Assembly: GCF_988243305.1 (NCBI RefSeq)
Contig: NZ_OZ547136.1
Strand: one strand, 5' to 3'
DNA: 64,000 nucleotides
The position numbers and the translations under genes were made by a program. Positions 101 through 63,999 of the stretch are shown here, in pieces. Under the pieces are notes generated by a model that saw nothing but the letters and a program-made list of their open reading frames with translations, searched no databases and was not told where the DNA came from. Position 1 is the stretch's first letter; every line of letters begins with the position of its first letter.

Positions 101-290
<190 letters not shown>

Positions 291-1736: not shown

Positions 1737-1738
1737 AA

Positions 1739-4406: not shown

Positions 4407-4408
4407 GC

Positions 4409-5530: not shown

Positions 5531-5555
5531 GTCTTATTCCTCTGTATTTTTGAAT

Positions 5556-6104: not shown

Positions 6105-6119
6105 TGGTTTTCCTTATAT

Positions 6120-6866: not shown

Positions 6867-6876
6867 GTTCTTATTC

Positions 6877-8094: not shown

Positions 8095-9286
8095 ACTCCT
8101 CCAGCATCTGTTGTCCACTGTAGGCGGCGCGGCTGCATTGGCTGAACTCAGCCAGCGTGGTGCCAAATATCGCCTTCGCGATTTCCGGTTTGCTTAACTG
8201 CACCAGTTGCAGCACGTCTTCTTCGCTGACGGTTTTACCGCCGGATTTTTGCAGCACTTCACGTGCCGCGTCGCTATGGGTGGCAATCACCGGCACGCCA
8301 ATCGATAGCGCCTCACACAAAATCAGCGGGTAGTTATCGACGCGAGAACTGAATACCAGCGCATCCATCTGATTGAGCGCGCTCATCAACTTGCGCTTGT
8401 CAGTTTCAAAGCCGTGATTAACCACGTTGCCAGCGGTGAACGGCGAGAACTTACCAAAGGTATGCAGTTCGATTTTGTCGCCCAGCGCCATCATCTCGCG
8501 TACCAGTTGCTGGTTAGTTTTGCCGTCGTAACGCAGATCATGCGCCACCACCGCGATTTTCGGCTTGCCCTGAGTTTCGCGCACCGGAGGCAGGTCCGCC
8601 AGAATCGCTTCGGTTGCCATATCAATGCCATTATTGATAATCCGGCAACGCCCTGGACCGTACAGACTATTGAAAGCATCAGCCACATGCTGGCTGGGGG
8701 AAATAAACTGACAGCCCAGCGCCAGCATCTCACGGAATAACTGGCGTTTGCCCGCCACCAGCTGGTGTGCGCGATCAATCTTCACCGGCGGATAGTTATT
8801 TAAGGTCGGGCATTTCTGGCAGCCCTTTTTCCAGCCTTCACAACCGTCGGTAAAGGCGCAGCGTCCGGTAACGCTCCAGTGATCGTGTAACGTCCAGACC
8901 AAAGTGACATTCGGTTTGTGGTTTTTCACCTTTTCGCAAAAGCGCACCACGCTCTTAAGATTCAACCAGTAGCTGTGCAGCACATGAAAATGCAGGACCA
9001 CCGGACCCGGTGTGCGAGTAATGGTGCGATATAACTCATTGAAATTGCCGAACAGATCGCGATTAAACAGACGAAACAGGGCAATGTTCGCCATCGCGGT
9101 CATCCGCGGCGTATGTTTGATGACCTGCGGATAGTTCTGATGGCTGACGCTCTCTTTGCCGCCTTTGCCGTAACCGTAGACAAAATGTGACGCCAGCCCC
9201 TGTTGCAGCGCACGCTGGTGGAGATCTAACGCCACACCTGCCGCCCCGCCTTCCGCCAGTCGCACATTAAATTGCAGAATATTCAT
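8069..9286 (-). CDS. wcaC: Colanic acid biosynthesis glycosyltransferase WcaC (GT4 family)
   Basis: 405-aa ORF MNILQFNVRLAEGGAAGVALDLHQRA...; operon position. Confidence 0.88.
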   Translation of the reverse strand: MNILQFNVRLAEGGAAGVALDLHQRALQQGLASHFVYGYGKGGKESVSHQNYPQVIKHTPRMTAMANIALFRLFNRDLFGNFNELYRTITRTPGPVVLHFHVLHSYWLNLKSVVRFCEKVKNHKPNVTLVWTLHDHWSVTGRCAFTDGCEGWKKGCQKCPTLNNYPPVKIDRAHQLVAGKRQLFREMLALGCQFISPSQHVADAFNSLYGPGRCRIINNGIDMATEAILADLPPVRETQGKPKIAVVAHDLRYDGKTNQQLVREMMALGDKIELHTFGKFSPFTAGNVVNHGFETDKRKLMSALNQMDALVFSSRVDNYPLILCEALSIGVPVIATHSDAAREVLQKSGGKTVSEEDVLQLVQLSKPEIAKAIFGTTLAEFSQCSRAAYSGQQMLEEYVNFYQNL

Positions 9287-9771
9287 TTAATTACCTTCAC
9301 TCGCGCTTTTTCTCCCACCACCAGCGCGTTGTCCGGGACAGAGTCGAGCACCACGCTGCCCGCGCCCACGGTGACGTTGTTACCAAGCGTGATATCACCA
9401 AGAATAATGACGTTGGCACCGAGCTCGACGCCGTTGCCAATGTGTGGACATGCCATGTTATCGGCACCACGATTGCCGATAGTGACGCCGTGGCGAATGG
9501 TGAAATCATCCCCCGCTACCACGTTTTTATTGATCACTACGGCGTAACCGTGATGGATAGTGAAACGGCGACCAATGGTTGCGGCTGCCTGGATTTCATA
9601 ACCGAAAAAGCATTCGGTGATAATGCGATACAGCACCAGCAGCGGGGCCGCCCAAATATTGTTGAGGACGTTCTTTTTGCGCCACACCGAACAAAAATGA
9701 GCGACGCGATAGGCAAGAACCATGCAGCACGGGCGTAAACTCCAGCTGTTGGCGCGCAGATCTTCCAGCAT
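9283..9771 (-). CDS. wcaB: Colanic acid biosynthesis acetyltransferase WcaB (serine acetyltransferase-like hexapeptide protein)
   Basis: 162-aa ORF with hexapeptide repeats (TIHHGYAVVINKNVVAGDDFTIRHGVTIGNRG...); 4-nt overlap with the wcaC start. Confidence 0.88.
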   Translation of the reverse strand: MLEDLRANSWSLRPCCMVLAYRVAHFCSVWRKKNVLNNIWAAPLLVLYRIITECFFGYEIQAAATIGRRFTIHHGYAVVINKNVVAGDDFTIRHGVTIGNRGADNMACPHIGNGVELGANVIILGDITLGNNVTVGAGSVVLDSVPDNALVVGEKARVKVIK

Positions 9772-9773
9772 CT

Positions 9774-10613
9774 TTAGCGCCCCCGAATACCATCAGCCAG
9801 ACGTTTGCCGTTACGCACCGACAGCAGCGTCAGCAAAGTGCGCCAGGTCATGCGTTTATTGCGGATCTGGTAGAGGGTAAACAGCTGATATTTTTTGCTG
9901 GCACGGTCGAATTTGTCTTTGTGCTTGCGGTAAAAGTGGAAGTACCCGGAGAATTTTTTCGGTGACGAGGTGATCTGCATTTCACCGTGATTGATATGCA
10001 GGATCTGCGTCGCCTCTTCCACTTTCCACGGTTCGCCATACTCCACCACCATCCGCAGGAAGATGTCGTAATCCTGTGCCGCTTTCAGTTCGGTATCAAA
10101 CAAACACTCTTTGAAACGCCATGCCCAGGTAAAGACCTGATTGCCAATGATATTGCGTTTGTAGAACAGGCGGCGTGAATACGGCGATTTGGGATACAGC
10201 GGTAAGCTTGCCGGTTGGGAATAGACTTCGCCCTGGCAAACGTAATCGTTAGCGTACAAAAAGGCGTGAGTGACCAGTTGCTGTTTATGGGCGAGGAAGA
10301 CGCTCAGACGGTTGGGGGTCCATTCATCATCATCATCGATCCCGGTGATGTATTCCCCTTGCGCCAGCATAATAGCCTGGTTACGTACCGCGCACGCCCC
10401 GCTGTTAATGTCGTTGTGAATGTAGGTAATACGCGGATCGTTGAGGGCGGTGACGTACTGTTGCAGTTGTTCCCAGGAGGTGGAGCAATCATCCACGACG
10501 ATCATCTCCCAGTTGTTGTAGTCCTGGCGCAGGACCGATTTTATCGCCCGAATCGCCAGTTGTTGGCGGTTCCAGGTCGGCATATAGATTGAGATCAGCG
10601 GATTGTCTTTCAT
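9774..10613 (-). CDS. wcaA: Colanic acid biosynthesis glycosyltransferase WcaA (GT2 family)
   Basis: 279-aa ORF MKDNPLISIYMPTWNRQQLAIRAIKSVLRQDYNNWEMIVVDDCS, a GT2 signature. Confidence 0.88.
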   Translation of the reverse strand: MKDNPLISIYMPTWNRQQLAIRAIKSVLRQDYNNWEMIVVDDCSTSWEQLQQYVTALNDPRITYIHNDINSGACAVRNQAIMLAQGEYITGIDDDDEWTPNRLSVFLAHKQQLVTHAFLYANDYVCQGEVYSQPASLPLYPKSPYSRRLFYKRNIIGNQVFTWAWRFKECLFDTELKAAQDYDIFLRMVVEYGEPWKVEEATQILHINHGEMQITSSPKKFSGYFHFYRKHKDKFDRASKKYQLFTLYQIRNKRMTWRTLLTLLSVRNGKRLADGIRGR

Positions 10614-10647
10614 AGGTTGTTCTCCCGGCTTATGAGCTGGTTTGCTT

Positions 10648-10720
10648 GCCGGATGCGGCGTGAGCGCCTTATCCGGCCTACGGGGCGGTGCGAATGCAGG
10701 CGTCGTTATTTCGCATCCGA
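10648..10720. repeat. REP palindromic elements between wzc and wcaA
   Basis: gccggatgcggcgtgagcgccttatccggcctac followed by a second partial palindrome (gcgaatgcaggcgtcgttatttcgcatccgac) that overlaps the wzc stop. Confidence 0.7.
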
Positions 10721-12868
10721 CTTATATTCGTATTCGTAATAGCCATAATCCTGATACGCGCTGGCGCGACGGAAGATGGAGTTCAGAATCACCCCTTTCA
10801 CCGGAATACCGTTTTGCTCAAAGCGGCTCAGACTGGTTTCCACTTCTTTCAATGTGTTGACCGCATAACGCGCCACCATTAACGTGGTTCCGACATGACG
10901 ACCAACAATTGCCGCATCGGTCACTGCCAGAATCGGCGGCGTATCAATCAACACCAGGTCATAGTTTTTACTCGCCCAGTTCACCAGTTCGGCAAAGCGT
11001 TCGCTCATCAACAGTTCAGAAGGATTTGGCGGTACCTGACCGCGCGGGATCAGGTCAAATTTGGCAATAGAGGTCGGTTTAGCAGCGGTAGTAATATCGC
11101 CCTGACCAATCAAAATTTCCGACAGGCCATTGACGTTATTGGTGCCCAACAGCTCGTGGGTGTAGCCTTTGCGCATATCGCAGTCGATCAACAACACCCG
11201 TTTATTGGTCTGACTGATCACCGCCGCCAGGTTAGCGCAGACAAAGGTTTTACCGATTGACGGGCTAACCCCGGTCATCATCAACACATTGTTCTGCGCC
11301 TGCATCATCGCGAAGTGCAGACTGGTACGCAGACTGCGGATGGCTTCAATCGCCAGATCGGTTGGATTCCCCACCGCCAGTAGCTGGCTCTGTTTATAGC
11401 GTTTAACCCCTTTGATGGTTTTGACGCTATCGCGCGCTTTCTGCCATTCCGACAGCGGGATGCTGGCATAGACGCTAATACCGTGTTCTTCCAGCACCTG
11501 TGGGCTTTCGATGCCGCGATTGAACAACGAGCGCAGCAGCACACCCACGATAGAGAGCATCAGGCCGAGGATAATCGCGCCGAGGATAATCAGCCCTTTC
11601 TTCGGTTTTAGCACGCCAGGCTGGGTGATTGCCGGGTCAACAATGCGCACATCGCCGACGGTGCTGGCCTCGGTGATTTTCAGCTCCTGCTCTTTATTCA
11701 GCAGTTGCATATAGACCTGTTGACCAGACTCGACATCGCGGGTCAGACGGACAATTTCCTGCTGGGTTTTCGGCATCGCCGTTACGCGACCGTTAAGTTT
11801 GGCTTTTTCGTCTTCCAGCGCCTGCCGTTTCTCCAGCAGCGTGCGGTACGCCGGGTGAACTTTGGTGTACAGCTTGGAGATTTCCGCTTCTTTAAAGGTC
11901 AGTTCGTTCAACTGCGCGTCGATGTTCACCATCGAATCGAGCACCGCTTTCGCTTCCAGCGGCAGATCAACAGAATCTTTATCCTGACGGAAGGCATTCA
12001 GTTTGTTTTCGGCAACATCGAGGCGGCTACGTACTTCCGGTAACTGTTGCGCGAGGAAAGCGAGGCTTTTCGACGCTTCCGCCGATTTGCGCTCAATATT
12101 TTGTTCCTGATAGTTACGGGCGATGCTGTTAAGAATGTCGCGGATCTGTTCGCGATCTTCACCGGTATAAGTCAGGCTCAAAACGCCAGCATCTTTGCCG
12201 TTCTCCGTTACCGTCAGGCTGTTTTGCAGTTGGTTGATCATCCCCAGCGTGGAGTATTTGGTGACGGTAAACTCACTGCCCGGGCTGGCGTGAATGGCTT
12301 CAACCATCAGCGTGACGCCTTCTTTTTTCAGCATCTGGCCCGCTTGCCCACGGGCGCTAAAGCCGCCATCACTGCTCAGGGTGTAGTTTTTGTCATCAAG
12401 CACATTAAGCGTAAACACCTGATCCGCCATCTCTTTCGGGCGGTTAAAGGTGGTCACTTTCACCGTCTCGTTCTGACGTCCCATCAGGCGATCCCAGCCC
12501 GCACCGAAAATCGGGAACGTGTTTTTGCTCACCGCAATATCGAGGTCGAGATCGTCCACCGTTTTACCAAGCACCAGACGCGAACGAATCAACTGGATCT
12601 CGGCGTCCGATGCTGGCGGTTTGTTGGCTAATGCCGAACCAATGTCCTGCACTAACGAATTGCCGCTGTTTTGCTCGATTTGTACCAGTGCGTCGGCACT
12701 ATAAATCGGCGTGGCGAAGAAGGTGTAAACCACGGCACAGAGGGCGAATACGGCAGTGATGCCAATTACCCACCAGCGCGCCTCAATGACGGTGCCAACC
12801 AGGCGACCAATATCGATTTCATCACTGCCCGTTACCGGAGCGGCATGTTGTTTTACTTTTTCTGTCAT
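10706..12868 (-). CDS. wzc: Tyrosine autokinase Wzc (polysaccharide co-polymerase with BY-kinase domain)
   Basis: ORF track gives 732 aa; I start at the internal MTEKVKQHAAPVTGSDEIDIGRL (720 aa, ATG at 12866-12868). Walker A GVSPSIGKT and a C-terminal Tyr-rich tail (YQDYGYYEYEYKSDAK). Confidence 0.92.
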   Translation of the reverse strand: MTEKVKQHAAPVTGSDEIDIGRLVGTVIEARWWVIGITAVFALCAVVYTFFATPIYSADALVQIEQNSGNSLVQDIGSALANKPPASDAEIQLIRSRLVLGKTVDDLDLDIAVSKNTFPIFGAGWDRLMGRQNETVKVTTFNRPKEMADQVFTLNVLDDKNYTLSSDGGFSARGQAGQMLKKEGVTLMVEAIHASPGSEFTVTKYSTLGMINQLQNSLTVTENGKDAGVLSLTYTGEDREQIRDILNSIARNYQEQNIERKSAEASKSLAFLAQQLPEVRSRLDVAENKLNAFRQDKDSVDLPLEAKAVLDSMVNIDAQLNELTFKEAEISKLYTKVHPAYRTLLEKRQALEDEKAKLNGRVTAMPKTQQEIVRLTRDVESGQQVYMQLLNKEQELKITEASTVGDVRIVDPAITQPGVLKPKKGLIILGAIILGLMLSIVGVLLRSLFNRGIESPQVLEEHGISVYASIPLSEWQKARDSVKTIKGVKRYKQSQLLAVGNPTDLAIEAIRSLRTSLHFAMMQAQNNVLMMTGVSPSIGKTFVCANLAAVISQTNKRVLLIDCDMRKGYTHELLGTNNVNGLSEILIGQGDITTAAKPTSIAKFDLIPRGQVPPNPSELLMSERFAELVNWASKNYDLVLIDTPPILAVTDAAIVGRHVGTTLMVARYAVNTLKEVETSLSRFEQNGIPVKGVILNSIFRRASAYQDYGYYEYEYKSDAK

Positions 12869-12870
12869 TC

Positions 12871-13314
12871 TTATACCTGCTCTGCGTTCAATGCCTGCGC
12901 CCACTGGCGGGCAGACCGTTCAAGTAATGTGTACACCGCTGCAAACGTTTCCCGGCTTTTGCGATACGGATCGGGGATTTCACATTCGTTATCCCAGTGA
13001 CCAAACAGCATCACTTTGCCGCGCATCTCAGGTGCCATCTCGCATAAGCGTTCGATATGGCGCTTTTCCATGGTCAAAATCAGGTCGTAGTTGCGACACA
13101 GGCGACGGCTGATTTGCCGTGCACAGTGACCTTCCAGAGACAGTTGATGTTCTGCGGCGACGCTGATAGCAGTAGGGTCAGCGCCCTTACCGACCAGCGC
13201 GCCGAGTCCAGCGGACTCCACTTTCAGCTCCGGGTGATAACGTTGCAGTAAGCGTTCCGCCGTCGGGGAACGGCAAATATTGCCGACACAGACAACTAAG
13301 ATGTTGTTAAACAT
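12871..13314 (-). CDS. wzb: Low-molecular-weight protein-tyrosine phosphatase Wzb
   Basis: 147-aa ORF MFNNILVVCVGNICRSPTAERLL containing the CxGNxCRS P-loop of LMW-PTPs. Confidence 0.93.
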   Translation of the reverse strand: MFNNILVVCVGNICRSPTAERLLQRYHPELKVESAGLGALVGKGADPTAISVAAEHQLSLEGHCARQISRRLCRNYDLILTMEKRHIERLCEMAPEMRGKVMLFGHWDNECEIPDPYRKSRETFAAVYTLLERSARQWAQALNAEQV

Positions 13315-13319
13315 GACGA

Positions 13320-14459
13320 TTACCAGTTATGAATGTCGCTGGCTGTATCCGTCATGTAACGGACACCGCTAATAGTTGGCAGCAACTGATTGATCAGACG
13401 GTTCCAGCGGGAAACCGGGGCGGTGGTGACATACACCACGTCATAAGGTTGCAGGCGGAATTCTGTCGCCATCACCAGCGACGTGGCATCGGACATATCC
13501 AGCTGGTAGATATTGGCAATCTTGCCGTTACGCCCACCCTCGCCTTTCAGCGGACGAATGACAAAGATGCCGCTGGCGTTGGAGGTGGTCATGTCGATGC
13601 CTTCAGCATTGCCCAGGGCTTCAGTCAGGGTCATGCCGCTAAAGTCCATTTTCAGGGTGCTCTGTTTTTTAACTTCACCCATCACAAATACTTTCAGATC
13701 ATCATTACGCGGCACGTAGAGAATATCGCCGGGGTAAAGCAGTCGGTTCTGATTGAGGTCGCCGTTTTGCATCAGCGCCTGCAAAGAAATGCGTTCTTCA
13801 CGACCATTGTGTGTTAGCACCACGTTGCGCCAGTCAGCGGTGTCGGTCAGACCACCTGCGGCGTTGATGGCATCGAGAATGGTCAGTGGTACGTTGGTGA
13901 TGGCCTGTTGACCGGATTTATTCACCTGACCTGAGATATACGCTTTTTGCGAGCGGAAGGCGGCGATATTAACGTCCACCTGCGGGTCAGCGATGTACGT
14001 CGCTAAGCGCCCGGTAATATCACTGCGGATTTCAGCGAGCGTTTTCCCCACCACGTGAACTTTGCCGATATACGGGTAGAACATGGTGCCGTCAGGCTGT
14101 ACCCAGTTGCCGGTGTCGCTGGAGCTGCGGTACTGACCGGCTGGCGTGGTAAGTTCCGGGTGATCCCAGACGGTGACATTAAGAACGTCCCCCGGCCCGA
14201 CGCGATACTGGTAATTCGCGATCTCGCTTTCCAGCGTCATATTGGGGCGCGCTACGTTGGGTCGTGGGCGTAATTGATCAATCAGGCGCGGGGTCAACGG
14301 ATAAACATTCACCATTTTGTCGAGATCGAAATCAGCGTCCTGCTGTTTGATGACGTCTTTGCCCATCGTCGACATATTGCTGCCCGGAAGTACTGTGCAA
14401 CCGCTTATCAAGGTTACTGACACCAATAATGGCATCAATTTCATTTTGGATTTCATCAT
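13320..14459 (-). CDS. wza: Outer-membrane polysaccharide export lipoprotein Wza
   Basis: 379-aa [26 protein letters not shown] (lipoprotein signal with lipobox Cys); first gene of the colanic acid operon. Confidence 0.93.
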
Positions 14460-14637
14460 TGTTTATTTATCACTTTGGCAGAGTAATTATCCTGTGCACT
14501 ATTAATAGCAATGTCGCCATGCACATTTACCTTGCAGTTAATTGAATAAAAATTTAACTGGCATCAGTCCTAAAAAAATTGATTTCATCCGCAGGCTATT
14601 GACAGAATAATTCAGACTGGTCTTTCAGGCATCCAGA

Positions 14638-14649
14638 CACGCTACCGCC
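14638..14649 (-). promoter_or_regulatory. ops element (GGCGGTAGCGTG) within a JUMPStart sequence in the wza leader; RfaH-dependent antitermination site
   Basis: Plus strand 14638-14649 reads cacgctaccgcc, whose reverse complement is GGCGGTAGCGTG, the 12-nt ops consensus. It lies about 180 nt upstream of the wza start on the coding strand. Confidence 0.75.
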
Positions 14650-15117
14650 CCTGGCTTTTTAGCTACCAATACACTGATTTAGCTTAATTTTTAAAACCCT
14701 CTCAACATACAGTCGTTGATGAGAAAGGGTTATTGCGGAAATTAACTTCCGAATATAAGGTGACATTATGGTAATTGAATATTGGCTCTCCAATAATGCA
14801 GGAGGAAGTGTTACAGCTAACGGAATAGCAGGCAAGGTAACAATTCGGCAATTGGCTATTTTTAAGAATTATATTAAGTGTCATTCAACATGGTTTTTAG
14901 GAGTTTCTTTAGGTTGACAATATTTAATATAGTGTCTCCACATGCGATATTTCTTAAATAATGTTTTATTATTACCACTTTTAATTCAGGGATAATGTGA
15001 GGTTATAAACCTCAAATAATATGAGATAAATAGTGCTGCAACATTGCATTTTTGCCCCGATTTATCCATGATCGAATTGTGACATTTGTCATACAACGAA
15101 TAGGTTTTGTACTTACT

Positions 15118-16701
15118 ATGGAATGGATTGCCGATCCGTCTATCTGGGCCGGGTTAATCACGCTGATTGTGATCGAACTGGTCCTCGGCATTGATAACCT
15201 GGTCTTTATTGCCATCCTCGCCGAAAAACTACCGCCGAAGCAGCGCGACCGCGCACGGGTTACCGGGCTGCTGCTGGCGATGTTAATGCGCCTGTTACTG
15301 CTGGCGTCAATCTCCTGGCTGGTCACCCTGACACAACCGCTATTCAGCTTTCGCTCGTTTACCTTTAGCGCCCGCGACTTAATCATGCTGTTTGGTGGTT
15401 TCTTCCTGCTGTTCAAAGCCACGATGGAGCTGAACGAACGGCTGGAAGGGAAAGACAGCAATAACCCCACGCAACGCAAAGGTGCGAAGTTCTGGGGGGT
15501 GGTGACACAAATTGTGGTACTGGACGCCATCTTCTCACTCGACTCGGTGATTACCGCCGTCGGGATGGTCGACCATTTACTGGTCATGATGGCCGCCGTC
15601 GTTATCGCTATTAGCCTGATGTTGATGGCCAGCAAGCCGTTAACGCAATTTGTTAACAGTCACCCGACGATCGTTATTCTCTGCTTAAGCTTCCTGTTGA
15701 TGATTGGCTTTAGCCTGGTGGCAGAAGGTTTCGGCTTCGTCATTCCGAAAGGCTACCTGTACGCTGCTATTGGTTTCTCGGTGATGATCGAGGCGCTCAA
15801 TCAGTTGGCTATCTTTAACCGGCGACGTTTTCTTTCCGCTAACCAGACACTGCGCCAGCGGACTACCGAAGCGGTAATGCGCCTGCTTAGCGGGCAAAAA
15901 GAAGATGCGGAACTGGACGCCGAAACCGCGTCCATGCTGGTGGATCATGGTAACCAGCAGATCTTTAATCCGCAGGAACGGCGGATGATTGAGCGGGTAC
16001 TTAATCTTAACCAGCGTACTGTCAGCAGCATTATGACGTCGCGCCACGATATTGAGCATATCGATCTCAACGCGCCGGAAGAAGAAATCCGCCAGTTGCT
16101 GGAGCGAAATCAGCATACGCGGTTGGTGGTTACCGACGGTGATGACGCAGAAGATTTGCTCGGTGTTGTTCACGTTATCGACCTGCTACAACAGTCACTG
16201 CGCGGCGAACCGCTCAACCTGCGGGTGTTGATTCGCCAGCCGCTGGTGTTCCCGGAAACCTTGCCGTTGTTACCTGCTTTGGAGCAGTTCCGTAATGCCC
16301 GCACACACTTTGCTTTTGTGGTGGATGAGTTTGGCTCGGTGGAAGGGATTGTGACATTAAGTGACGTCACGGAAACTATTGCCGGTAACTTGCCGAACGA
16401 AGTGGAAGAGATCGACGCCCGCCATGATATTCAGAAAAACGCCGACGGTTCCTGGACGGCGAATGGTCATATGCCACTGGAAGATCTGGTGCAATATGTG
16501 CCGCTACCGCTGGATGAGAAACGCGAATATCACACCATTGCCGGGCTGCTGATGGAATATTTGCAGCGTATTCCAAAACCTGGCGAAGAAGTTCAGGTGG
16601 GGGATTATTTGCTTAAAACGTTGCAGGTGGAAAGCCATCGCGTGCAGAAGGTGCAGATTATACCGCTGCGTAAGGATGGCGAGATGGAGTACGAGGTGTG
16701 A
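15118..16701 (+). CDS. yegH: Inner-membrane protein YegH (TerC-family integral membrane domain fused to CBS pair and CorC/HlyC-type transporter-associated domain)
   Basis: ORF track gives 549 aa; I start at [34 protein letters not shown] (527 aa, ATG 15118). Hydrophobic N-terminal half and soluble C-terminal half. Confidence 0.85.
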
Positions 16702-42678: not shown

Positions 42679-43011
42679 ATGGCTGGTTGGTTTGAACTCA
42701 GTAAGAGCAGTGATAATCAGTTCCGGTTTGTGCTAAAAGCGGGCAATGGTGAGACTATCCTCACCAGCGAGCTATATACCTCAAAAGCCTCTGCGGAAAA
42801 GGGTATCGCGTCGGTGCGTAGCAACAGCCCGCAAGAAGAACGCTATGAGAAAAAAACGGCAAGCAACGGCAAATTCTATTTCAATCTGAAAGCCGCCAAT
42901 CATCAAATTATCGGCTCCAGCCAGATGTACGCCACCGCGCAATCTCGTGAAACCGGAATTGCCTCCGTTAAAGCCAATGGCACAAGCCAGACGGTGAAAG
43001 ACAATACGTAA
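42679..43011 (+). CDS. yegP: UPF0339/DUF1508 family protein YegP (two internal repeats)
   Basis: ORF track start is upstream; I start at MAGWFELSKSSDNQFRFVLKAGNGETI (110 aa, ATG 42679), preceded by RBS aggagt. The two halves are homologous (FRFVLKAGNGETILTSELYTSKASAEKGIASVRSN vs FYFNLKAANHQIIGSSQMYATAQSRETGIASVKAN). Confidence 0.82.
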   Translation: MAGWFELSKSSDNQFRFVLKAGNGETILTSELYTSKASAEKGIASVRSNSPQEERYEKKTASNGKFYFNLKAANHQIIGSSQMYATAQSRETGIASVKANGTSQTVKDNT

Positions 43012-43158
43012 TTACGATGCCGGGCGTGGGTTGTTGGCGTCCGGCGCTTTACCAGCTCCCCCCTACAGCGCTACAATGCCCGCCCTTAAAGTGGGGGCAC
43101 TCCCCTGGCCGCTTCATCAGGTGAAGCGGATCTGACCTGTCATCAGAACGAGAGAATT

Positions 43159-44520
43159 ATGTTTAAACCGGAACTCCTTTCCCCGGCGGGAACGCTGAAA
43201 AATATGCGTTACGCTTTCGCTTATGGCGCAGATGCTGTTTATGCGGGCCAGCCGCGTTACTCCCTGCGTGTGCGCAACAACGAATTTAACCACGAAAATC
43301 TTCAGCTCGGCATCAATGAAGCCCACGCGCTGGGGAAAAAGTTTTATGTCGTGGTCAACATTGCACCGCACAACGCCAAGCTGAAAACCTTTATCCGTGA
43401 CCTGAAACCGGTGGTGGAAATGGGGCCGGATGCGCTGATTATGTCCGATCCGGGGCTGATTATGCTGGTGCGCGAGCACTTCCCTGAAATGCCGATCCAT
43501 CTCTCAGTACAGGCTAACGCCGTGAACTGGGCGACGGTGAAATTCTGGCAGCAAATGGGTCTGACCCGCGTGATCCTCTCTCGCGAACTGTCACTGGAAG
43601 AGATTGAAGAGATCCGCAATCAGGTGCCAGATATGGAGATCGAAATCTTCGTTCACGGCGCGCTGTGCATGGCCTACTCCGGTCGCTGCCTGCTCTCTGG
43701 CTATATCAACAAGCGCGACCCGAACCAGGGCACCTGCACCAACGCCTGCCGCTGGGAGTACAACGTCCAGGAAGGGAAAGAAGATGACGTTGGCAACATC
43801 GTGCACAAGTACGAGCCGATTCCGGTGCAAAATGTTGAGCCGACGCTGGGTATCGGCGCACCAACTGACAAAGTGTTTATGATCGAAGAAGCCCAGCGTC
43901 CGGGCGAGTATATGACCGCGTTTGAAGATGAGCACGGCACTTACATCATGAACTCGAAAGATCTGCGCGCTATCGCCCACGTTGAACGCCTGACCAAAAT
44001 GGGCGTGCATTCGCTGAAAATCGAAGGCCGTACTAAATCTTTCTACTATTGCGCACGCACCGCACAGGTTTACCGTAAAGCTATCGATGACGCCGCTGCG
44101 GGCAAACCGTTCGATACCAGCCTGCTGGAAACTCTGGAAGGTCTGGCGCATCGTGGCTATACCGAAGGTTTCCTGCGTCGTCATACTCACGACGATTATC
44201 AGAACTACGAATACGGTTATTCAGTTTCTGACCGCCAGCAGTTTGTTGGTGAGTTTACCGGTGAGCGCAAGGGCGACCTCGCGGCGGTAGCGGTGAAAAA
44301 TAAATTCTCCGTTGGCGACAGCCTTGAGCTGATGACGCCGCAAGGGAACATTAACTTTACCCTTGAGCAGATGGAAAACGCCAAAGGCGAAGCAATGCCG
44401 GTCGCACCGGGCGATGGTTATACTGTGTGGATCCCGGTCCCGCAGGATCTTGAGCTAAATTACGCGCTGCTGATGCGTAATTTCTCCGGGGAAACCACGC
44501 GTAACCCACACGGTAAGTGA
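43159..44520 (+). CDS. yegQ: Peptidase U32-family protein YegQ (TrhP; associated with tRNA ho5U34 hydroxylation)
   Basis: 453-aa ORF MFKPELLSPAGTLKNMRYAFAYGADAVYAGQPRYSLR, a typical U32 N-terminus. Confidence 0.88.
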   Translation: MFKPELLSPAGTLKNMRYAFAYGADAVYAGQPRYSLRVRNNEFNHENLQLGINEAHALGKKFYVVVNIAPHNAKLKTFIRDLKPVVEMGPDALIMSDPGLIMLVREHFPEMPIHLSVQANAVNWATVKFWQQMGLTRVILSRELSLEEIEEIRNQVPDMEIEIFVHGALCMAYSGRCLLSGYINKRDPNQGTCTNACRWEYNVQEGKEDDVGNIVHKYEPIPVQNVEPTLGIGAPTDKVFMIEEAQRPGEYMTAFEDEHGTYIMNSKDLRAIAHVERLTKMGVHSLKIEGRTKSFYYCARTAQVYRKAIDDAAAGKPFDTSLLETLEGLAHRGYTEGFLRRHTHDDYQNYEYGYSVSDRQQFVGEFTGERKGDLAAVAVKNKFSVGDSLELMTPQGNINFTLEQMENAKGEAMPVAPGDGYTVWIPVPQDLELNYALLMRNFSGETTRNPHGK

Positions 44521-44604
44521 TTAATTTCGATTATTTTTCCCGGATGGAAAATTCTTAGAAACCGATCACATACAGCTGCATTTATTAAGGTTATCATCCG
44601 TTTC

Positions 44605-44691
44605 GCTGAAAAACATAACCCATAAAATGCTAGCTGTACCAGGAACCACCTCCTTAGCCTGTGTAATCTCCCTTACACGGGCTTATTTTTT
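44605..44691 (+). ncRNA. cyaR: CyaR (RyeE) Hfq-dependent, CRP-activated sRNA
   Basis: GCTGAAAAACATAACCCATAAAATGCTAGCTGTACCAGGAACCACCTCCTTAGCCTGTGTAATCTCCCTTACACGGGCTTATTTTTT read on the plus strand matches my recollection of E. coli CyaR, including the terminator hairpin and U-tract. Confidence 0.8.
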
Positions 44692-44849
44692 ATGCATAGG
44701 CCCTATCCCTGGTCACCGTCTTCCATTGACCACATCGATAGAATCTCCCTTCATAGCACGATGCCTTTCACGTAACGGCATCGTGCTCGCACTAGTTCCG
44801 GCTAAGCACAACCAGAACGCGCATGTTTGACGCTTACCAAAAAATATTC

Positions 44850-45167
44850 TCACTCTCCACATTTGAATGTCAGACGAGCGACGCCATGTAATCCTGCACC
44901 TTCTGTCTTCAGGTCAACTATCTGCATTTTTTTGCCCTGAGTAACACAGAAATGAGCTGCATCATTTTTTACTATATTTTCTGCACCAGATATTCTGCCC
45001 CTGGCTAAAGAAGCTTCGGCTTCGGTGTAGTATTGGTTATCGAGTTTACGCTGAATATTACTTTTATATGCAAGACCAAATTTACCGATACTTGTCTCAT
45101 CATTATGTACAGCACACCCAGACATAAGAAAAACACTAATTAATGATATAGCAGCTATCTTTTTCAT
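44850..45167 (-). CDS. yegR: Small lipoprotein YegR
   Basis: Track ORF 125 aa; I start at MKKIAAISLISVFLMSGCAVHN (105 aa, ATG 45165-45167), which carries a lipobox. Confidence 0.8.
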   Translation of the reverse strand: MKKIAAISLISVFLMSGCAVHNDETSIGKFGLAYKSNIQRKLDNQYYTEAEASLARGRISGAENIVKNDAAHFCVTQGKKMQIVDLKTEGAGLHGVARLTFKCGE

Positions 45168-45581
45168 CTTACCTTCCCCCATTAAATACCAACGACACGC
45201 TCTGGTGTTAAAATATAATAATGGCATGATTATTATAATTGAATAGGATTATAATAAATGTTCTGTACAACATTTCCTACATAAGTAGGAATTACAAACA
45301 TGAAGCCCTGCCCAGGTATCCCCATGAGGGCTTTAATATATTTAGAATAAGATAGTGAAGATGCCACTGTTTAGTTGAATATTAGGTATATGCTCTTTTT
45401 TGAAATTTACCGGTGGCTACCGTTAACATTCACTGTCCCCATTGCAAGCTCCTGGTGGTAACCACTGAATCCTCCATACTTGAACTGACTTTTTATCCTC
45501 CGACTTTCATCCTGTTCTGACTCCACCTTTTCTTTTCTGCTCTACACTATCTACAGACCAATCATAAAGGCACATACGATC

Positions 45582-46481
45582 ATGGCAGAATTTCCCGCCA
45601 GCTTACTGATTCTTAATGGCAAAAGTACTGACAATTTACCATTGCGCGAAGCAATTATGCTGTTGCGTGAGGAAGGAATGACGATCCATGTGCGGGTCAC
45701 CTGGGAGAAAGGCGATGCCGCACGATATGTAGAGGAGGCCCGGAAGTTGGGCGTCGCAACGGTGATTGCCGGTGGTGGCGATGGCACCATTAATGAAGTT
45801 TCTACGGCGTTGATTCAGTGTGAGGGGGATGACATACCCGCGCTGGGAATTTTGCCATTAGGAACCGCCAATGATTTTGCCACCAGTGTAGGGATTCCTG
45901 AGGCACTGGATAAGGCGCTGAAACTGGCAATTGCCGGTAACGCCATTGCGATAGATATGGCGCAGGTCAACAAACAAACCTGTTTTATTAATATGGCGAC
46001 AGGCGGGTTTGGGACGCGTATTACCACAGAAACGCCGGAAAAATTAAAAGCCGCGCTGGGTGGCGTCTCTTACATCATTCATGGCTTAATGCGCATGGAC
46101 ACTCTGCAACCGGACCGTTGTGAGATCCGCGGTGAAAACTTTCACTGGCAAGGTGACGCCCTGGTCATTGGTATTGGTAACGGGCGTCAGGCCGGTGGCG
46201 GTCAACAATTGTGCCCGAACGCGTTAATTAACGATGGCTTGCTGCAACTGCGCATTTTTACCGGCGATGAAATTCTTCCGGCTCTCGTATCAACCTTAAA
46301 ATCTGACGAAGATAACCCGAATATTATCGAAGGCGCTTCGTCGTGGTTTGATATACAAGCCCCACACGAAATCACTTTTAATCTTGATGGCGAACCGTTG
46401 AGCGGACAAAACTTTCATATTGAAATACTTCCGGCGGCGTTGCGTTGTCGATTACCACCGGATTGTCCATTATTGCGTTAA
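45582..46481 (+). CDS. yegS: Lipid kinase YegS (diacylglycerol-kinase-like catalytic domain)
   Basis: 299-aa [21 protein letters not shown]...GGDGTINEV, a DAGK_cat signature. Confidence 0.9.
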
Positions 46482-46519
46482 TCAAACTATTCTCTCTTGA
46501 ACCAGGGAGAAACAGTTAT

Positions 46520-46553
46520 GCCGGATGCGGTATAAACACCTTATCCGGCCTAC
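46520..46553. repeat. REP element between yegS and gatR
   Basis: gccggatgcggtataaacaccttatccggcctac palindrome. Confidence 0.65.
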
Positions 46554-46562
46554 TGAACAATA

Positions 46563-47342
46563 CTACACCGTAATTAATTTCACCCGTGTCTTCTGCAATG
46601 CCAGTTTATCCACCTCTGACACGGCATCATCGGTAATAATAATGTCGATTTTTTCGATTGGCAGTACCTGATTAAAACCGCGACGATTAAATTTCGATGA
46701 ATCGAGAACGGCAATCACTTTATTTGCGGCTGTGACCATCGCCCCGCTAATCGAATAACCTTCATTAAAGGTCGTAATACCATTAACCGCATCAATACCA
46801 TCAGCACCGACAAACATTAAATCGGCATTAATATCCTGCAATGAACGCTCGGCAATGGAACCATGCATCGAGCGTGTTTTATGGCGGACGGTCCCACCAC
46901 AGACGACCAGAGTAATGTCTTTATTTTCGGAAAGGGCAAACGCCGCCGGGAGACTGTTGGTAATCACCGTGATATTTTTGGCGGTCATTAAACCTTCGGC
47001 GATAAGCATTGTGGTACTTCCGCTGTCGAGAATAACGGTCATCCCTTCGTGGATCATTTTGACTGCCGCCTGCGCTATTCTGTTTTTTGGCGCACTGGCG
47101 AGCTGAAATCGCTCTTTAAACCCAACTTCCTGGGTCTCGGTTTCACTATTACCGGACATTATTTTCGCCGCACCGCCATGAAAGCGCGTAACTACGCCTT
47201 TTTGTTCGAGAAAGCGCAAATCGGCACGGATTGTCGCTTCCGAGGCAGCAAATACTCCCGCCAGATCCTGAACAAGCACGGTTCCCTGTTCATTCACTAA
47301 TTGGATGATCTTATTCCTTCGCTCGAATGAATTCATCGTCAT
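46563..47342 (-). CDS. gatR: DeoR-family transcriptional repressor of the galactitol operon (intact)
   Basis: 259-aa uninterrupted ORF MTMNSFERRNKIIQLVNEQGTVLVQDLAGVFAASEATIRADLRFLEQKGVV (DeoR HTH) plus a C-terminal sugar-binding domain. Confidence 0.88.
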   Translation of the reverse strand: MTMNSFERRNKIIQLVNEQGTVLVQDLAGVFAASEATIRADLRFLEQKGVVTRFHGGAAKIMSGNSETETQEVGFKERFQLASAPKNRIAQAAVKMIHEGMTVILDSGSTTMLIAEGLMTAKNITVITNSLPAAFALSENKDITLVVCGGTVRHKTRSMHGSIAERSLQDINADLMFVGADGIDAVNGITTFNEGYSISGAMVTAANKVIAVLDSSKFNRRGFNQVLPIEKIDIIITDDAVSEVDKLALQKTRVKLITV

Positions 47343-47441
47343 TTACCCATATTCAATTGTGGCTAGTGTAAACGAAGGGGGACCATTGGTGAATGATCTG
47401 TTTTGCACAATACCGGGCCAGCATCACGCTGGCCCGCGGTT

Positions 47442-48482
47442 TCAGGGAATGAGCAACACTTTGCCCGGCATAGCATTACGAGCGATGTCACGCACCGCCT
47501 GGGCGAAGCTTTCAAAGCTTCCACGGTGAGCGATTAATGGCTCCAGGCTTAACTTACGTTCTGTCAGCAACCGGCTCGCCGTTTCCCACTCCTGCCCCGG
47601 CCAAGGGCTGGAGTAGTTCATCCAGCTGCCGATAACCGTCAGCTCTTTACGCAATATTTTGCCAAACGTTGCCGATGTTAAATGCAGATCCTGATGCAAC
47701 GTGCCCACCAGCGCCAGCTGGGCATGAGGCCCGGCAATCTCTACCGCCAGTTCGACGGTTTGCGGGACGCCAGCCGTCTCGAGGATAAGCTGATTAAAGC
47801 GCAGTTCGCGTAAAACGCTCTGCATTTGCGGCGCGCTCATTTCGCTACTGTTAAATGTTTGCATCGCACCGAAAGATTTTGCCAGTGCCAGTTTTTCTGA
47901 GCTAATGTCGATAGCCGTCACACTCTTTGCTCCCAGCGCGACAGCGCACTGAATTGCCAGCAGGCCAATGGTTCCGGCACCAATAATAATAACGTTTTTA
48001 TTCTCACAACCTTGCGCTAAATGAAAAGCATGCAGGCCAACGGTAATCGGTTCAATAAAAGCCCCATCCTCAATAGGCATATCCGTGGGTAGAGCAAAGA
48101 CATTTTTTCGCTTAACGACAATATATTCAGCAAATCCACCATCACGCCGCGAGCCAATAAAATCATATTTTGCGCACTGGGAATAAAACCCTTTCAAACA
48201 CTCTGGACAAGTAAAACAGGGTAATAACGGCACACAGGCAACCGCATCGCCAGGGTGTAAATCATCAACACCGGATCCCACCGCATCAATATAGCCGCTA
48301 AATTCATGGCCTAACGTTATTGGATAATAATGTGCACCATTTTTAAATATCCTGGGTAAATCGGAACCACATAAGCCCGAGCTGGTAATTTTTACCCGTA
48401 CCTCATCCTGATGTTTAATTTCAGGAATGACGCTTTCTGCAACGCGCACGATACCATCAGTATCATTCACCACTGATTTCAT
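47442..48482 (-). CDS. gatD: Galactitol-1-phosphate 5-dehydrogenase (Zn-dependent MDR family)
   Basis: 346-aa ORF with MDR zinc-ligand motifs (GHEFSG, CxxCxxC) and a Rossmann GAGTIG motif. Confidence 0.92.
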   Translation of the reverse strand: MKSVVNDTDGIVRVAESVIPEIKHQDEVRVKITSSGLCGSDLPRIFKNGAHYYPITLGHEFSGYIDAVGSGVDDLHPGDAVACVPLLPCFTCPECLKGFYSQCAKYDFIGSRRDGGFAEYIVVKRKNVFALPTDMPIEDGAFIEPITVGLHAFHLAQGCENKNVIIIGAGTIGLLAIQCAVALGAKSVTAIDISSEKLALAKSFGAMQTFNSSEMSAPQMQSVLRELRFNQLILETAGVPQTVELAVEIAGPHAQLALVGTLHQDLHLTSATFGKILRKELTVIGSWMNYSSPWPGQEWETASRLLTERKLSLEPLIAHRGSFESFAQAVRDIARNAMPGKVLLIP

Positions 48483-48529
48483 AAAAACTCCTGATTGTTA
48501 AGGGGGATTACCTCCCCCTCAGGTAAAAA

Positions 48530-49885
48530 TTATTCTGCGAGAACGGCTTTCTCTTGTTTAATAAAACCACGCGCTCTACGCCAGGTCATGAAAATACCGG
48601 TCAGATAAATTGCGCCGATAATAATGAAACCGGGAATATTTTGCGGGGAGAAAACCTGAATCAGTAACCAGGTAATGGGAGAACCGCCCTGATCCATTGA
48701 AGCCACCATACCCCCGGCTTTTAACGCCCCAGCATTAGCCGCCAGTTGGGTGTGCAAACCAATAGTTTGCGTCGCGATCCACAGGGTGATGCTCATAATG
48801 ATGACACCCGAGATTAAGGTGCGGAACAGATTTCCACGATGCACGGCAACTGCCATCGCCACAAAGAAGCCGATAGTTGCAAGATCGCCAAACGGCAGCA
48901 CCTGATTACCCGGCACACAAACAGCAATTAAAATGGTGAGCGGGATAAAAATCAGGCTTGCCGATACCACCGCCGTATGCCCCAGCAGCAACGCCGGATC
49001 AAGGCCAATCAGGAACTCCTGACCGCCGAACTTCGCCTGTAAACGACTACGGGCCTGCTTAGCGATGGGCGTTAAACCATCCATGATGGGTTTAATCACC
49101 CGTGGCATCAGCAGCATCACCGCCGCCGTTTTTACCGCCAGCTGCAATACACCTTTGACATCGTAACCCGCGAGGATGCCGATAATCAGCCCCATCACAA
49201 AACCCACGGTGACAGGCTCGCCAAACGGACCAAATTTGCGCTGAATATCGTCGGCGCTAAATTTAATACGGTTAACGCCTGGGATTTTCTCGATGATAGC
49301 ATCCACCAGCACCGCAATTGGCCCCAGATACGCCGACGTACCGTGCGGAATAGCAATGCCTTCCAGCTCAAAGAAATTTCGGGTATCGCGGGCAAACCAG
49401 TCGCCGAGCTTATAAACAAACGCCGCGTGAATTACCACACCCGCCATCCCTATCATCCATGAACCGGTTGCCAGATGCAGCAACGCGCCGGTGAAGGTCA
49501 TATGCCAGATATTCCAGATATCAACATTTACCACCCGCGTCATACGGGTCAGTAGCATCGCCACGTTAACCAGAATCGCAATCGGAATCGCCACCAGCGC
49601 AATTTGCGACGCCCAGGTCATTGGTGAAGAGCCCGGCCAACCGACATCGACCACATGCAGATTCAGGTCGAAATTTTCCGCCATCGCTTTCGCCGCCGGG
49701 CCAATGGAATCCAGCATTAAGCCAATCACAAGGCCAATGCCAACAAAGCCAATCCCGATATGCAGACCTGCTTTAAAGCAATCGCCTGCCTTCATGCCTA
49801 ATATTTTAGAAAAAATAATGATGACAATCGGTAGCATCACCGTAGGGCCGAGGTCGAGAATATAACGCATGACTTCTGAAAACAT
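48530..49885 (-). CDS. gatC: PTS galactitol-specific EIIC component
   Basis: 451-aa polytopic membrane ORF within the gat operon. Confidence 0.92.
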   Translation of the reverse strand: MFSEVMRYILDLGPTVMLPIVIIIFSKILGMKAGDCFKAGLHIGIGFVGIGLVIGLMLDSIGPAAKAMAENFDLNLHVVDVGWPGSSPMTWASQIALVAIPIAILVNVAMLLTRMTRVVNVDIWNIWHMTFTGALLHLATGSWMIGMAGVVIHAAFVYKLGDWFARDTRNFFELEGIAIPHGTSAYLGPIAVLVDAIIEKIPGVNRIKFSADDIQRKFGPFGEPVTVGFVMGLIIGILAGYDVKGVLQLAVKTAAVMLLMPRVIKPIMDGLTPIAKQARSRLQAKFGGQEFLIGLDPALLLGHTAVVSASLIFIPLTILIAVCVPGNQVLPFGDLATIGFFVAMAVAVHRGNLFRTLISGVIIMSITLWIATQTIGLHTQLAANAGALKAGGMVASMDQGGSPITWLLIQVFSPQNIPGFIIIGAIYLTGIFMTWRRARGFIKQEKAVLAE

Positions 49886-49888
49886 AGG

Positions 49889-50173
49889 TCACCCCTGTAA
49901 GATAGTCAGAATTTTATTTTGTAATGCTTCGATACCGACACCAGAAACAAAAGGCATGCCGTGAACTAACGGAATATCGCCAAAACTACGGTCAACTTTG
50001 GCGGTAGTACATATCAAATGCACGCCATCCATATAGGTTTCTATTTCATTAACCCGACACTGGATTAATTCAACAGGAATATTATGACTCTGACACAACT
50101 CTTTAATTTCTTCCGCCGCCATCGTAGAGGTCGCAACCGCGCCTCCGCAAGCGACAATAATCTTGCGTTTCAT
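49889..50173 (-). CDS. gatB: PTS galactitol-specific EIIB component
   Basis: 94-aa [26 protein letters not shown], with the EIIB active-site Cys region. Confidence 0.92.
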
Positions 50174-50203
50174 AAATAGTCCTTTTTATTGTTACAGAGG
50201 GAT

Positions 50204-50656
50204 TTATTCGTCTGAATCTAAAACATACTTTGTGAAGTATTCCTTTAACTGGGTTTCAGGAAGAGTGATTAGTGTCTCGACGATATCGGGCTGTTGTAAC
50301 TTGCCAAATAAACAGCGTAAAAGTTTCAATTGCTGCTGCGGATTTTCCACAATCAACGCAATAACCAACGATACCGCCACGTCATTATCATCATCCGCTT
50401 GCTGAAAATGAACTTTATTTGTTGGCCTTAACAGATAAATGGCTGACGACTTAGCATGAATCGCCTCACAATGCGGTATTGCGATGGCGTGCTGCTCAAG
50501 CATTATCCCGGTAGGGAATTCTGCTTCTCTGGCAATTAATGCCTGTGGCCAGGTATCATGAACCACACCTTTCGCGAGCATCTCATTACCGATATGGGTT
50601 AAAACTTCGCTACGATCGGCAAAAGAAATTCCGCTACGAACAAACAGGTTAGTCAT
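50204..50656 (-). CDS. gatA: PTS galactitol-specific EIIA component
   Basis: 150-aa ORF; operon position between gatZ and gatB. Confidence 0.9.
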   Translation of the reverse strand: MTNLFVRSGISFADRSEVLTHIGNEMLAKGVVHDTWPQALIAREAEFPTGIMLEQHAIAIPHCEAIHAKSSAIYLLRPTNKVHFQQADDDNDVAVSLVIALIVENPQQQLKLLRCLFGKLQQPDIVETLITLPETQLKEYFTKYVLDSDE

Positions 50657-50665
50657 ATACCATCC

Positions 50666-52865
<2,200 letters not shown>

Positions 52866-53041
52866 TTAAATGTCGAGATAACGATCACAAAAACGACAAT
52901 ATGAAAATTGTTCGAGGAGTGAAAGGCAAAAAAAACGGCCTCCCGATAGGGAAGCCGTAGCAAAGTGCGCGTGTTTTTATGCCGGATGCGACGTAAACGC
53001 CTTTTCCGTCATACGTGGTAGTGCTGTTCGTATAAGGCGTA

Positions 53042-54094
53042 TCAGGCGATAGTAATTTTGCTATCGAGATAAACGTCCTGCACGGCGTTAATCAGTTTCA
53101 CGCCGTCAGCCATCGATTTCTTGAACGCCTTACGTCCAAGAATCAGCCCCATTCCGCCAGCGCGTTTGTTGATGACCGCAGTACGCACTGCATCGCTGAG
53201 GTCAGTTTCACCGCCTGCAGCACCGCCGGAGTTTATCAACCCTGCCCGGCCCATATAGCAGTTAGCTAACTGATAACGCACCAGATCAATCGGGTTTTCG
53301 CTGGTCAATTTGCTATAAACACGATCGTCGGTATAACCGTAATTAATCGCTTTATAGCCGCCGTTATTTTCCGCCATTTTTTGTTTGACGATATCCGCAC
53401 CTATAGTCGCCGCCAGATGGTTTGCCTGACCGGTCAGGTCGGCGGAAACATGGTAATCAACGCCATCTTTCTTAAAGGCGGAGTTACGCAAATAGGCCCA
53501 CAGCACTGTCACCATGCCCAGCTCGTGCGCACGTTCAAAAGCCGCAGAAATTTCTTCAATCTGGCGTCGTGACTCTTCCGAGCCAAAATAGATAGTCGCC
53601 CCAACCGCCACCGCGCCCATGTTGAACGCCTGCTCCACGCTGGCATACAGCGTTTGATCGTAGGTATTCGGGTAACTTAGCGTCTCGTTGTGATTAAGTT
53701 TGACGAGGAATGGAATGCGATGCGCGTAACGCCGCGATACCGACGCCAGCACGCCGTAAGTTGACGCCACGCAGTTACAGCCCGCTTCGATCGCCAGTTC
53801 AACAATGTTTTTCGGGTCAAAGTAGAGCGGGTTAGCGGCAAATGAAGCTCCGGCAGAGTGCTCAACGCCCTGGTCAACCGGCAGAATAGAAAGATATCCT
53901 GTGCCAGCCAGACGCCCAGTGTTGTACAACGTCTGCATATTACGTAACACCGCTGGCGGGCGATTATTGTCAATCATCACGCGGTCTACGTAGTCATGTC
54001 CGGGGAGATAAAGCTGGTCAGAAGGAATAGTCATACAACGGTGCTGTAAAAGGTTGTCGGCGTCTTTGCCAAGCAACTGCGCAATATCTGTCAT
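53042..54094 (-). CDS. fbaB: Fructose-bisphosphate aldolase class I
   Basis: Track ORF 374 aa; I start at [32 protein letters not shown] (350 aa, ATG 54092-54094). Confidence 0.9.
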
Positions 54095-62670: not shown

Positions 62671-63999
62671 TAAGGAGATCCCCTCATAATTTCCCCAAAG
62701 CGTAACCATGTGTGAATAAATTTTGAGCTAGTAGGGTTGCAGCCACGAGTAAGTCTTCCCTTGTTATTGTGTAGCCAGAATGCCGCAAAACTTCCATGCC
62801 TAAGCGAACTGTTGAGAGTACGTTTCGATTTCTGACTGTGTTAGCCTGGAAGTGCTTGTCCCAACCTTGTTTCTGAGCATGAACGCCCGCAAGCCAACAT
62901 GTTAGTTGAAGCATCAGGGCGATTAGCAGCATGATATCAAAACGCTCTGAGCTGCTCGTTCGGCTATGGCGTAGGCCTAGTCCGTAGGCAGGACTTTTCA
63001 AGTCTCGGAAGGTTTCTTCAATCTGCATTCGCTTCGAATAGATATTAACAAGTTGTTTGGGTGTTCGAATTTCAACAGGTAAGTTAGTTGCTAGAACCCA
63101 TGGCTCCTTTGCCGACGCTGAGTAGATTTTAGGTGACGGGTGGTGACAATGAGTCCGTGTCGAGCGCTGATTTTTTCGGCCTTTAGAGCGAGATTTATAC
63201 AATAGAATTTGGCATGAGATTGGATTGCTTTTAGTCAGCCTCTTATAGCCTAAAGTCTTTGAGTGACTAGATGACATATCATGTAAGTTGCTGATAGGTT
63301 TCCAGTTTTCCGCTCCTAGGTCTGCATATTGTACTTTTCCTCTTACTCGACTTAACCAGTACCAACCCAGCTTCTCAACGGATTTATACCATGGCACTTT
63401 AAAGCCAGCATCACTGACAATGAGCGGTGTGGTGTTACTCGGTAGAATGCTCGCAAGGTCGGCTAGAAATTGGTCATGAGCTTTCTTTGAACATTGCTCT
63501 GAAAGCGGGAACGCTTTCTCATAAAGAGTAACAGAACGACCGTGTAGTGCGACTGAAGCTCGCAATACCATAAGTCGTTTTTGCTCACGAATATCAGACC
63601 AGTCAACAAGTACAATGGGCATCGTATTGCCCGAACAGATAAAGCTAGCATGCCAACGGTATACAGCGAGTCGCTCTTTGTGGAGGTGACGATTACCTAA
63701 CAATCGGTCGATTCGTTTGATGTTATGTTTTGTTCTCGCTTTGGTTGGCAGGTTACGGCCAAGTTCGGTAAGAGTGAGAGTTTTACAGTCAAGTAATGCG
63801 TGGCAAGCCAACGTTAAGCTGTTGAGTCGTTTTAAGTGTAATTCGGGGCAGAATTGGTAAAGAGAGTCGTGTAAAATATCGAGTTCGCACATCTTGTTGT
63901 CTGATTATTGATTTTTGGCGAAACCATTTGATCATATGACAAGATGTGTATCTACCTTAACTTAATGATTTTTACCAAAATCATTAGGGGATTCATCAG
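62671..63999 (-). mobile_element. IS10 insertion sequence (IS4 family), about 1329 bp
   Basis: Right terminus at 63999 matches the IS10 outside end (reverse complement CTGATGAATCCCCTAATGATTTTGGTAAAAATCATTAAG). Left end contains GAGATCCCCTCATAATTTCCCCAAAGCGTAACC, the IS10 inside end. Left junction is placed to within a few nt. Confidence 0.88.
62684..63892 (-). CDS. IS10 transposase
   Basis: 402-aa ORF MCELDILHDSLYQFCPELHLKRLNSLTLACHALLDCKTLTLTELGRNLPTKARTKHNIKRIDRLLGNRHLHKERLAVYRWH..., full length and apparently intact. Confidence 0.93.
   Translation of the reverse strand: MCELDILHDSLYQFCPELHLKRLNSLTLACHALLDCKTLTLTELGRNLPTKARTKHNIKRIDRLLGNRHLHKERLAVYRWHASFICSGNTMPIVLVDWSDIREQKRLMVLRASVALHGRSVTLYEKAFPLSEQCSKKAHDQFLADLASILPSNTTPLIVSDAGFKVPWYKSVEKLGWYWLSRVRGKVQYADLGAENWKPISNLHDMSSSHSKTLGYKRLTKSNPISCQILLYKSRSKGRKNQRSTRTHCHHPSPKIYSASAKEPWVLATNLPVEIRTPKQLVNIYSKRMQIEETFRDLKSPAYGLGLRHSRTSSSERFDIMLLIALMLQLTCWLAGVHAQKQGWDKHFQANTVRNRNVLSTVRLGMEVLRHSGYTITREDLLVAATLLAQNLFTHGYALGKL

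Follow-up and report, generated by a model that had tools for sequence, protein, structure and literature searches.

An uninterrupted gatR gene at the galactitol locus of an Escherichia coli contig

The gat cluster and the gatR reading frame

The window analysed here is a stretch of 64,000 nucleotides from contig NZ_OZ547136.1 of RefSeq assembly GCF_988243305.1. Its galactitol region, which adjoins the colanic-acid (wca) cluster, comprises gatYZABCD and gatR, the latter flanked by yegS (45582-46481, plus strand) and gatD (47442-48482, minus strand). The order yegS / gatR-gatD-gatC-gatB-gatA-gatZ-gatY / fbaB is common to the window, K-12, HS, ECA64, Ch1 and NCM3722, and the gene is located where a GatR orthologue is expected, i.e., at the 3' end of gatYZABCD, adjoining yegS. 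The initial annotation had placed gatR upstream of gatD. Given that both genes lie on the minus strand, this has to be reversed: gatR is 3' of gatD and closes the gatYZABCD-gatR cluster. The features considered are as follows.

46563..47342, minus strand: gatR coding sequence; the longest ORF has 259 aa and an ATG start, and a start at 47336 gives 257 aa (WP_001295426.1)
46629..47090, minus strand: DeoRC effector (sugar-phosphate sensor) region, residues 85-238, PF00455
47038..47040, no strand given: empty IS3E target site, with one GTC copy at codons about 101-102; MG1655 has the triplet on both sides of IS3E
47163..47321, minus strand: DeoR-type helix-turn-helix DNA-binding region, residues 8-60 of the 259-aa ORF, PF08220; coordinates converted from residue numbers
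47343..47441, minus strand: gatD-gatR spacer, with a hairpin and the presumed gatR promoter and ribosome-binding site; almost invariant
47442-48482, minus strand: gatD, intact
48530-49885, minus strand: gatC, intact
49889-50173, minus strand: gatB, intact
50204-50656, minus strand: gatA, intact
50666-51928, minus strand: gatZ, intact
51957-52811, minus strand: gatY, intact
52812..52965, minus strand: gatY upstream control region, presumed GatR target; aligns to K-12, HS and Ch1
62684-63892, minus strand: IS4-family transposase ORF of 402 aa, within an IS10-type element

The six gatYZABCD genes are full length and have no internal stops, and their lengths match those of HS and K-12. The exception is gatC of MG1655, which is 2 bp longer, frameshifted and annotated as a pseudogene. 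In comparison with HS, the proteins present between 1 and 10 amino-acid substitutions each.

A continuous DeoR-family ORF of 259 aa had been described at this locus, and the description is confirmed: a single minus-strand ORF spans 46563..47342 and contains both Pfam domains. Both the ORF listing and the raw sequence were re-read for a frameshift or premature stop between these positions, either of which would have overturned the initial annotation, and none was seen. The HTH_DeoR domain (PF08220) matches GatR residues 8-60 (E=1.3e-16; 60.5 bits, cut-off 21), and the DeoRC domain (PF00455) matches residues 85-238 (E=2.5e-51; 174.2 bits, cut-off 31.8). Because both domains match, the ORF is a genuine DeoR-family gene and a chance ORF is excluded. 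GatR presents the two parts by which DeoR/GlpR regulators are recognised (i.e., an N-terminal HTH and a C-terminal DeoRC sensor/oligomerisation domain), and a sequence search for solved relatives gave one only, 7l6l, the C-terminal domain of DeoR (E=1.9e-11).

With respect to the start codon, RefSeq uses the second in-frame ATG (third codon, 47336) in other genomes, which yields the 257-aa protein WP_001295426.1. In the likely ribosome-binding site, the GGG is located 9 nt from the second ATG and only 3 nt from the first, and this spacing favours the 257-aa product as the more plausible one.

At the far end of the window, an IS10-type insertion sequence occupies 62671-63999, its IS10 outside end finishing at 63999. 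The element interrupts rcnB after approximately 181 nt of the gene, the match to rcnB from other strains ends at 62670, and the other flank is outside the window.

gatR in MG1655 and in complete E. coli genomes

That gatR of K-12 MG1655 is split by an IS element had been stated in the initial annotation, and the MG1655 record bears this out, the element being IS3E. In NC_000913.3, gatR (b4498) is a pseudogene in two pieces, 2169693-2170167 and 2171429-2171727, separated by an IS3E of 1258 bp (2170171-2171428) that carries insE5/insF5. The K-12 junctions read AATAACG GTC/TGATCTTACCCA and TGGGTAGGATCA/GTC ATCCCTTCG, with the slash marking the boundary of the element, and present a 3-bp GTC duplication. 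The window reads GAATAACGGTCATCCCTTCG at the same site, uninterrupted, and does not carry the MG1655-type gatR::IS3E allele (i.e., IS3E at GTC with the 3-bp duplication).

The alignment to K-12 gatR proposed in the initial annotation hence gives an interrupted MG1655 copy and an uninterrupted window copy, whose proteins are equal once IS3E is removed: with the element and one GTC copy taken out, K-12 GatR is identical to the window protein at 257/257 aa. The two genes differ by 20 nucleotides, all of them synonymous and at positions divisible by three. The same holds for E. coli HS, whose GatR is identical at 257/257 aa while the gene carries 20 synonymous nucleotide changes. In all, the GatR protein is 100% identical in the window, K-12 (IS removed), NCM3722, HS, ECA64, Ch1 and RM13322, and the window protein equals both the named K-12 GatR and the functionally tested HS allele, as an orthologue would. 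The original description of GatR is that of Nobelmann and Lengeler in 1996 (J Bacteriol 178:6790).

It had also been proposed that an identical intact gene in K-12 would count against a difference between the window and K-12. This does not apply to MG1655, where gatR is split, but the K-12 strain NCM3722 does have the same intact protein (WP_001295426.1), together with an intact gatC. Both genes have also been reported intact in that strain (PMC3045373), and the gat locus is described as a hotspot of IS disruption in MG1655 and W3110 (PMC9997739).

A gatR match was obtained in 5109 of the 5426 complete E. coli genomes. In 4756 of these 5426 genomes the match is contiguous (i.e., one match covers at least 80% of gatR), an upper bound on intact copies given that pseudogenes caused by point mutations also pass; a 1.2-kb query returned the same count. 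A 126-nt probe for the K-12 gatR/IS3E junction was covered in 345/5426 complete genomes, and the junction matches listed are mostly laboratory K-12 derivatives. By arithmetic from these counts, gatR is missing altogether from approximately 317 of the complete genomes and truncated in some other way in roughly nine. In a public protein collection, the exact 259-aa and 257-aa GatR sequences are each found on at least 1000 contigs, under the name galactitol utilization operon repressor. An uninterrupted gatR is the ordinary state in E. coli and the split MG1655 copy is the exception, so the intact gatR of the window is not distinctive.

Two further matches are recorded on their own account. In the human isolate E. 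coli HS-01 (NZ_CP172817.1), the junction probe matches at approximately 2099829-2099948 with only 96% identity and a length difference, and its gatR may have an independent or variant IS3 insertion. Contig DXKH01000116.1, from a metagenome-assembled genome labelled Citrobacter sp. (HRGM_Genome_0066), is 97.6% identical to the window over the gatR-gatD region, which is within the E. coli strain range; it seems to be an E. coli contig that was wrongly binned with this assembly, or else the product of a recent transfer.

Variation within gatR was assessed on ten alleles, namely those of the window, MG1655 (IS removed), NCM3722, HS, ECA64, Ch1, MS15236, A36, RM13322 and an O157:H7 strain. Given that 42 of the 44 variable sites are third-position sites and that I196V and E241D are the only amino-acid variants, the alleles indicate that the GatR protein is a working one under strong purifying selection.

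Strain background and control regions

The initial annotation took the intact gatR as a sign of a background other than MG1655. The conclusion is right, but the marker is weak, given the 4756/5426 contiguous matches and the intact copy of NCM3722: an intact gatR excludes only the MG1655-type sublineage, i.e., the 345 genomes with the junction. Better evidence for a non-K-12 background is the nucleotide divergence of approximately 2-3%, together with the missing PR-X remnant. Over the region they share, the window has approximately 97% identity to K-12 and to HS, and it does not have this remnant (ogrK/yegZ, approximately 600 bp, beside cyaR), which is carried by MG1655 and NCM3722.

Were the window derived from an NCM3722-like relative of K-12 in which IS3E never inserted or was lost, the intact gatR would be uninformative as to a non-K-12 background. 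The intact gatR and gatC of NCM3722 and its identical GatR protein (PMC3045373) are what such a derivation would lead one to expect, yet MG1655 and NCM3722 each present 20 synonymous gatR differences from the window (98.281% identity in both cases), identity to K-12 across the locus is approximately 97%, the PR-X remnant is present in both K-12 strains and absent from the window, and no complete E. coli genome exceeds approximately 98% over 16-24 kb. The locus identity and the 20 gatR differences refute an NCM3722-like origin, to which we attach a negligible probability.

None of the 5426 complete E. coli genomes is more than approximately 98% identical to the window over 16-24 kb, as evaluated on 1-16000 and 36000-60000, and the identity profile to them is mosaic, ranging from 94.7 to 99.7% per 2 kb. 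The draft assembly GCA_054357115.1, in turn, is 99.985% identical over 13.3 kb and shares the intact gatR of the window. The exact GatZ protein of the window is indexed in 187 blocks of a public protein collection, and an exact 120-nt match for its gatR allele returned nothing among species-representative genomes. The source lineage is missing from the complete-genome set, though present in draft assemblies.

The P2-family prophage attachment region (44603-44850), next to cyaR (44603-44688), is empty in the window. Strain ECA64 has a full P2-like prophage at this site and K-12 has the PR-X remnant, whereas the window has neither.

The window, K-12 and HS have the same gatD-gatR spacer (100% identity), in which the ten alleles present one variable site, and a hairpin (CGGGCCAGC/GCTGGCCCG) is located in it at 47414-47436, directly after the gatD stop. 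Most of this spacer, together with the first approximately 143 nt of gatR, forms a 227-nt tract (47194-47419) with no variable site among the ten E. coli alleles, synonymous sites included, where about 13 would be expected from the gatR-wide density of 44/774. In E. whittamii and Escherichia sp. E1V33, divergence from the window is 1-2% in the spacer and 3-4% in the 5' part of gatR, against 12% in the rest of gatR and about 9.5% in gatD; in these other Escherichia species the tract diverges 3-6 times slower than flanking coding DNA. This pattern indicates constraint at the nucleotide level, the most likely cause of which would be the gatR promoter and operator, or possibly an mRNA element. The tract might hold a further regulatory element in addition to a usual promoter, e.g., an auto-operator that reaches into the gatR reading frame or a 5' stretch of the mRNA subject to post-transcriptional targeting, but this seems to us doubtful, with a chance of about one in five.

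In a RIL-seq study, the targets listed for the candidate sRNA AceK-int include gatR (PMC8175672). A consensus scan for promoters and terminators over 46400-47600 gave background-level matches only, none of them in the spacer, and the promoter assigned to the spacer is a presumed one. An Rfam search of 47100-47700 at E<=1 yielded no match; at gathering thresholds, CyaR (44603-44688) was the only family matched in 43000-54000. When folded, the spacer RNA showed no significant gain in stability over shuffled sequences (z=-1.5).

The region upstream of gatY (52812..52965) is 96-97.5% identical to K-12, HS and Ch1, with one 1-nt indel in a T-run. Its core of approximately 130 nt differs from HS by four substitutions and one T-run length difference, and three assemblies belonging to the same lineage as the window match the region at 100% identity, with the four substitutions fixed. 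A word in this region, AAAACAAATCATT, resembles AAAACAGATCATT upstream of gatR and is taken as a lead only; the motif shared by both upstream regions, AAAACARATCATT, is not claimed as an operator, since its position varies among strains. In the fbaB-gatY intergenic region (52960-53000), the window does not have a 78-bp REP-like block that is present in K-12 and HS, the core gatY upstream region being otherwise conserved.

Regulation of galactitol use

With a probability of approximately 0.93, we consider the window's gatR to be a wild-type, functional DeoR-family repressor of the gat genes, in a strain that is galactitol-positive and inducible, whereas MG1655 is constitutive through IS3E. The claim that the IS-split gatR leads to constitutive gat expression in MG1655 agrees with the literature (PMC5850726; PMC3045373; bioRxiv 10.64898/2026.01.05.697630), in which higher gat expression in MG1655 is put down to the gatR disruption (PMC3045373). 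When HS gatR was swapped for the MG1655 pseudogene, regulated gat expression was restored (PMC5850726). Galactitol catabolism had been called probably repressible, a prediction that is well founded, since the gene is uninterrupted and its protein equals the HS allele that restores regulation in MG1655. Given this identity and the six intact gatYZABCD genes, inducible galactitol use is the best prediction for the window strain. The purifying selection on GatR and the conservation of the gatY upstream region agree with this.

In the mechanism suggested by family knowledge and published work, the N-terminal HTH would attach to operator sequences at the promoter of gatY, and probably of gatR itself, thereby blocking transcription. 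The C-terminal DeoRC domain would bind a phosphorylated intermediate, going by family behaviour either galactitol-1-phosphate or tagatose-6-phosphate, upon which the repressor would be released, and the gat genes would be switched on only with galactitol available. In MG1655, IS3E at codon about 101 would destroy the repressor and make the operon constitutive.

A different outcome would be that GatR is intact and binds DNA, yet the operon stays locked off in the strain's natural setting, so that galactitol use is repressed rather than regulated. [quoted passage not shown] The identical HS protein, however, gave regulated, galactitol-positive behaviour in MG1655 (PMC5850726), and the transporter and the enzymes needed for making the inducer are all intact in the window, so we consider a locked-off operon improbable. 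Silencing of gatR in the same two clinical strains gave a strong phenotype (bioRxiv 10.64898/2026.01.05.697630), hence gatR is an active repressor in wild strains.

The identity of the repressor itself could be questioned on the basis of its family scores. The highest NCBIfam scores of the window protein are for AgaR (232.9 bits) and SrlR (226.3 bits), with full-length alignments to the AgaR model (E=3e-69) and the SrlR model (E=4e-67), and the RefSeq name is merely 'DeoR/GlpR family', which might suggest an AgaR- or SrlR-like paralogue instead of the galactitol repressor. Both scores, however, are under the curated cut-offs of 260 and 350, and it is because no NCBIfam equivalog reaches its cut-off for the window GatR that the RefSeq name is so general. 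The gene is at the gatR position and its protein is 100% identical to K-12 GatR (b4498) without the IS, which rules out such a paralogue and leaves it with next to no chance of being correct.

The reading of a functional gat repressor implies that the window strain is predicted to regulate galactitol catabolism normally, which matters little beyond correct annotation. With gatR split by IS3E and gatC frameshifted, MG1655 is an atypical reference at the gat locus; therefore, where the window differs from K-12 it presents the ancestral state, and the differences are no peculiarity of the new strain. In the mouse gut, the constitutive K-12 gat operon is costly and rapidly lost, and a strain with gatR restored keeps the operon, the restored gatR acquiring new IS insertions within days (PMC5850726).

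In comparison with E. coli GatR (WP_001295426.1), which is functional in HS, NCM3722 and many others, the window's gatR is identical in its 257 aa, its position and its operon context. It differs from MG1655 gatR in that it has neither IS3E nor the 3-bp GTC duplication. GatR of Salmonella Typhimurium is likewise a DeoR-type repressor of gat promoters, in another species and locus context, and deletion of its HTH region abolishes their repression (PMC7972205). Finally, AgaR, SrlR (GutR) and DeoR of E. coli share the HTH_DeoR and DeoRC architecture with GatR, but they control other operons and have other effectors.
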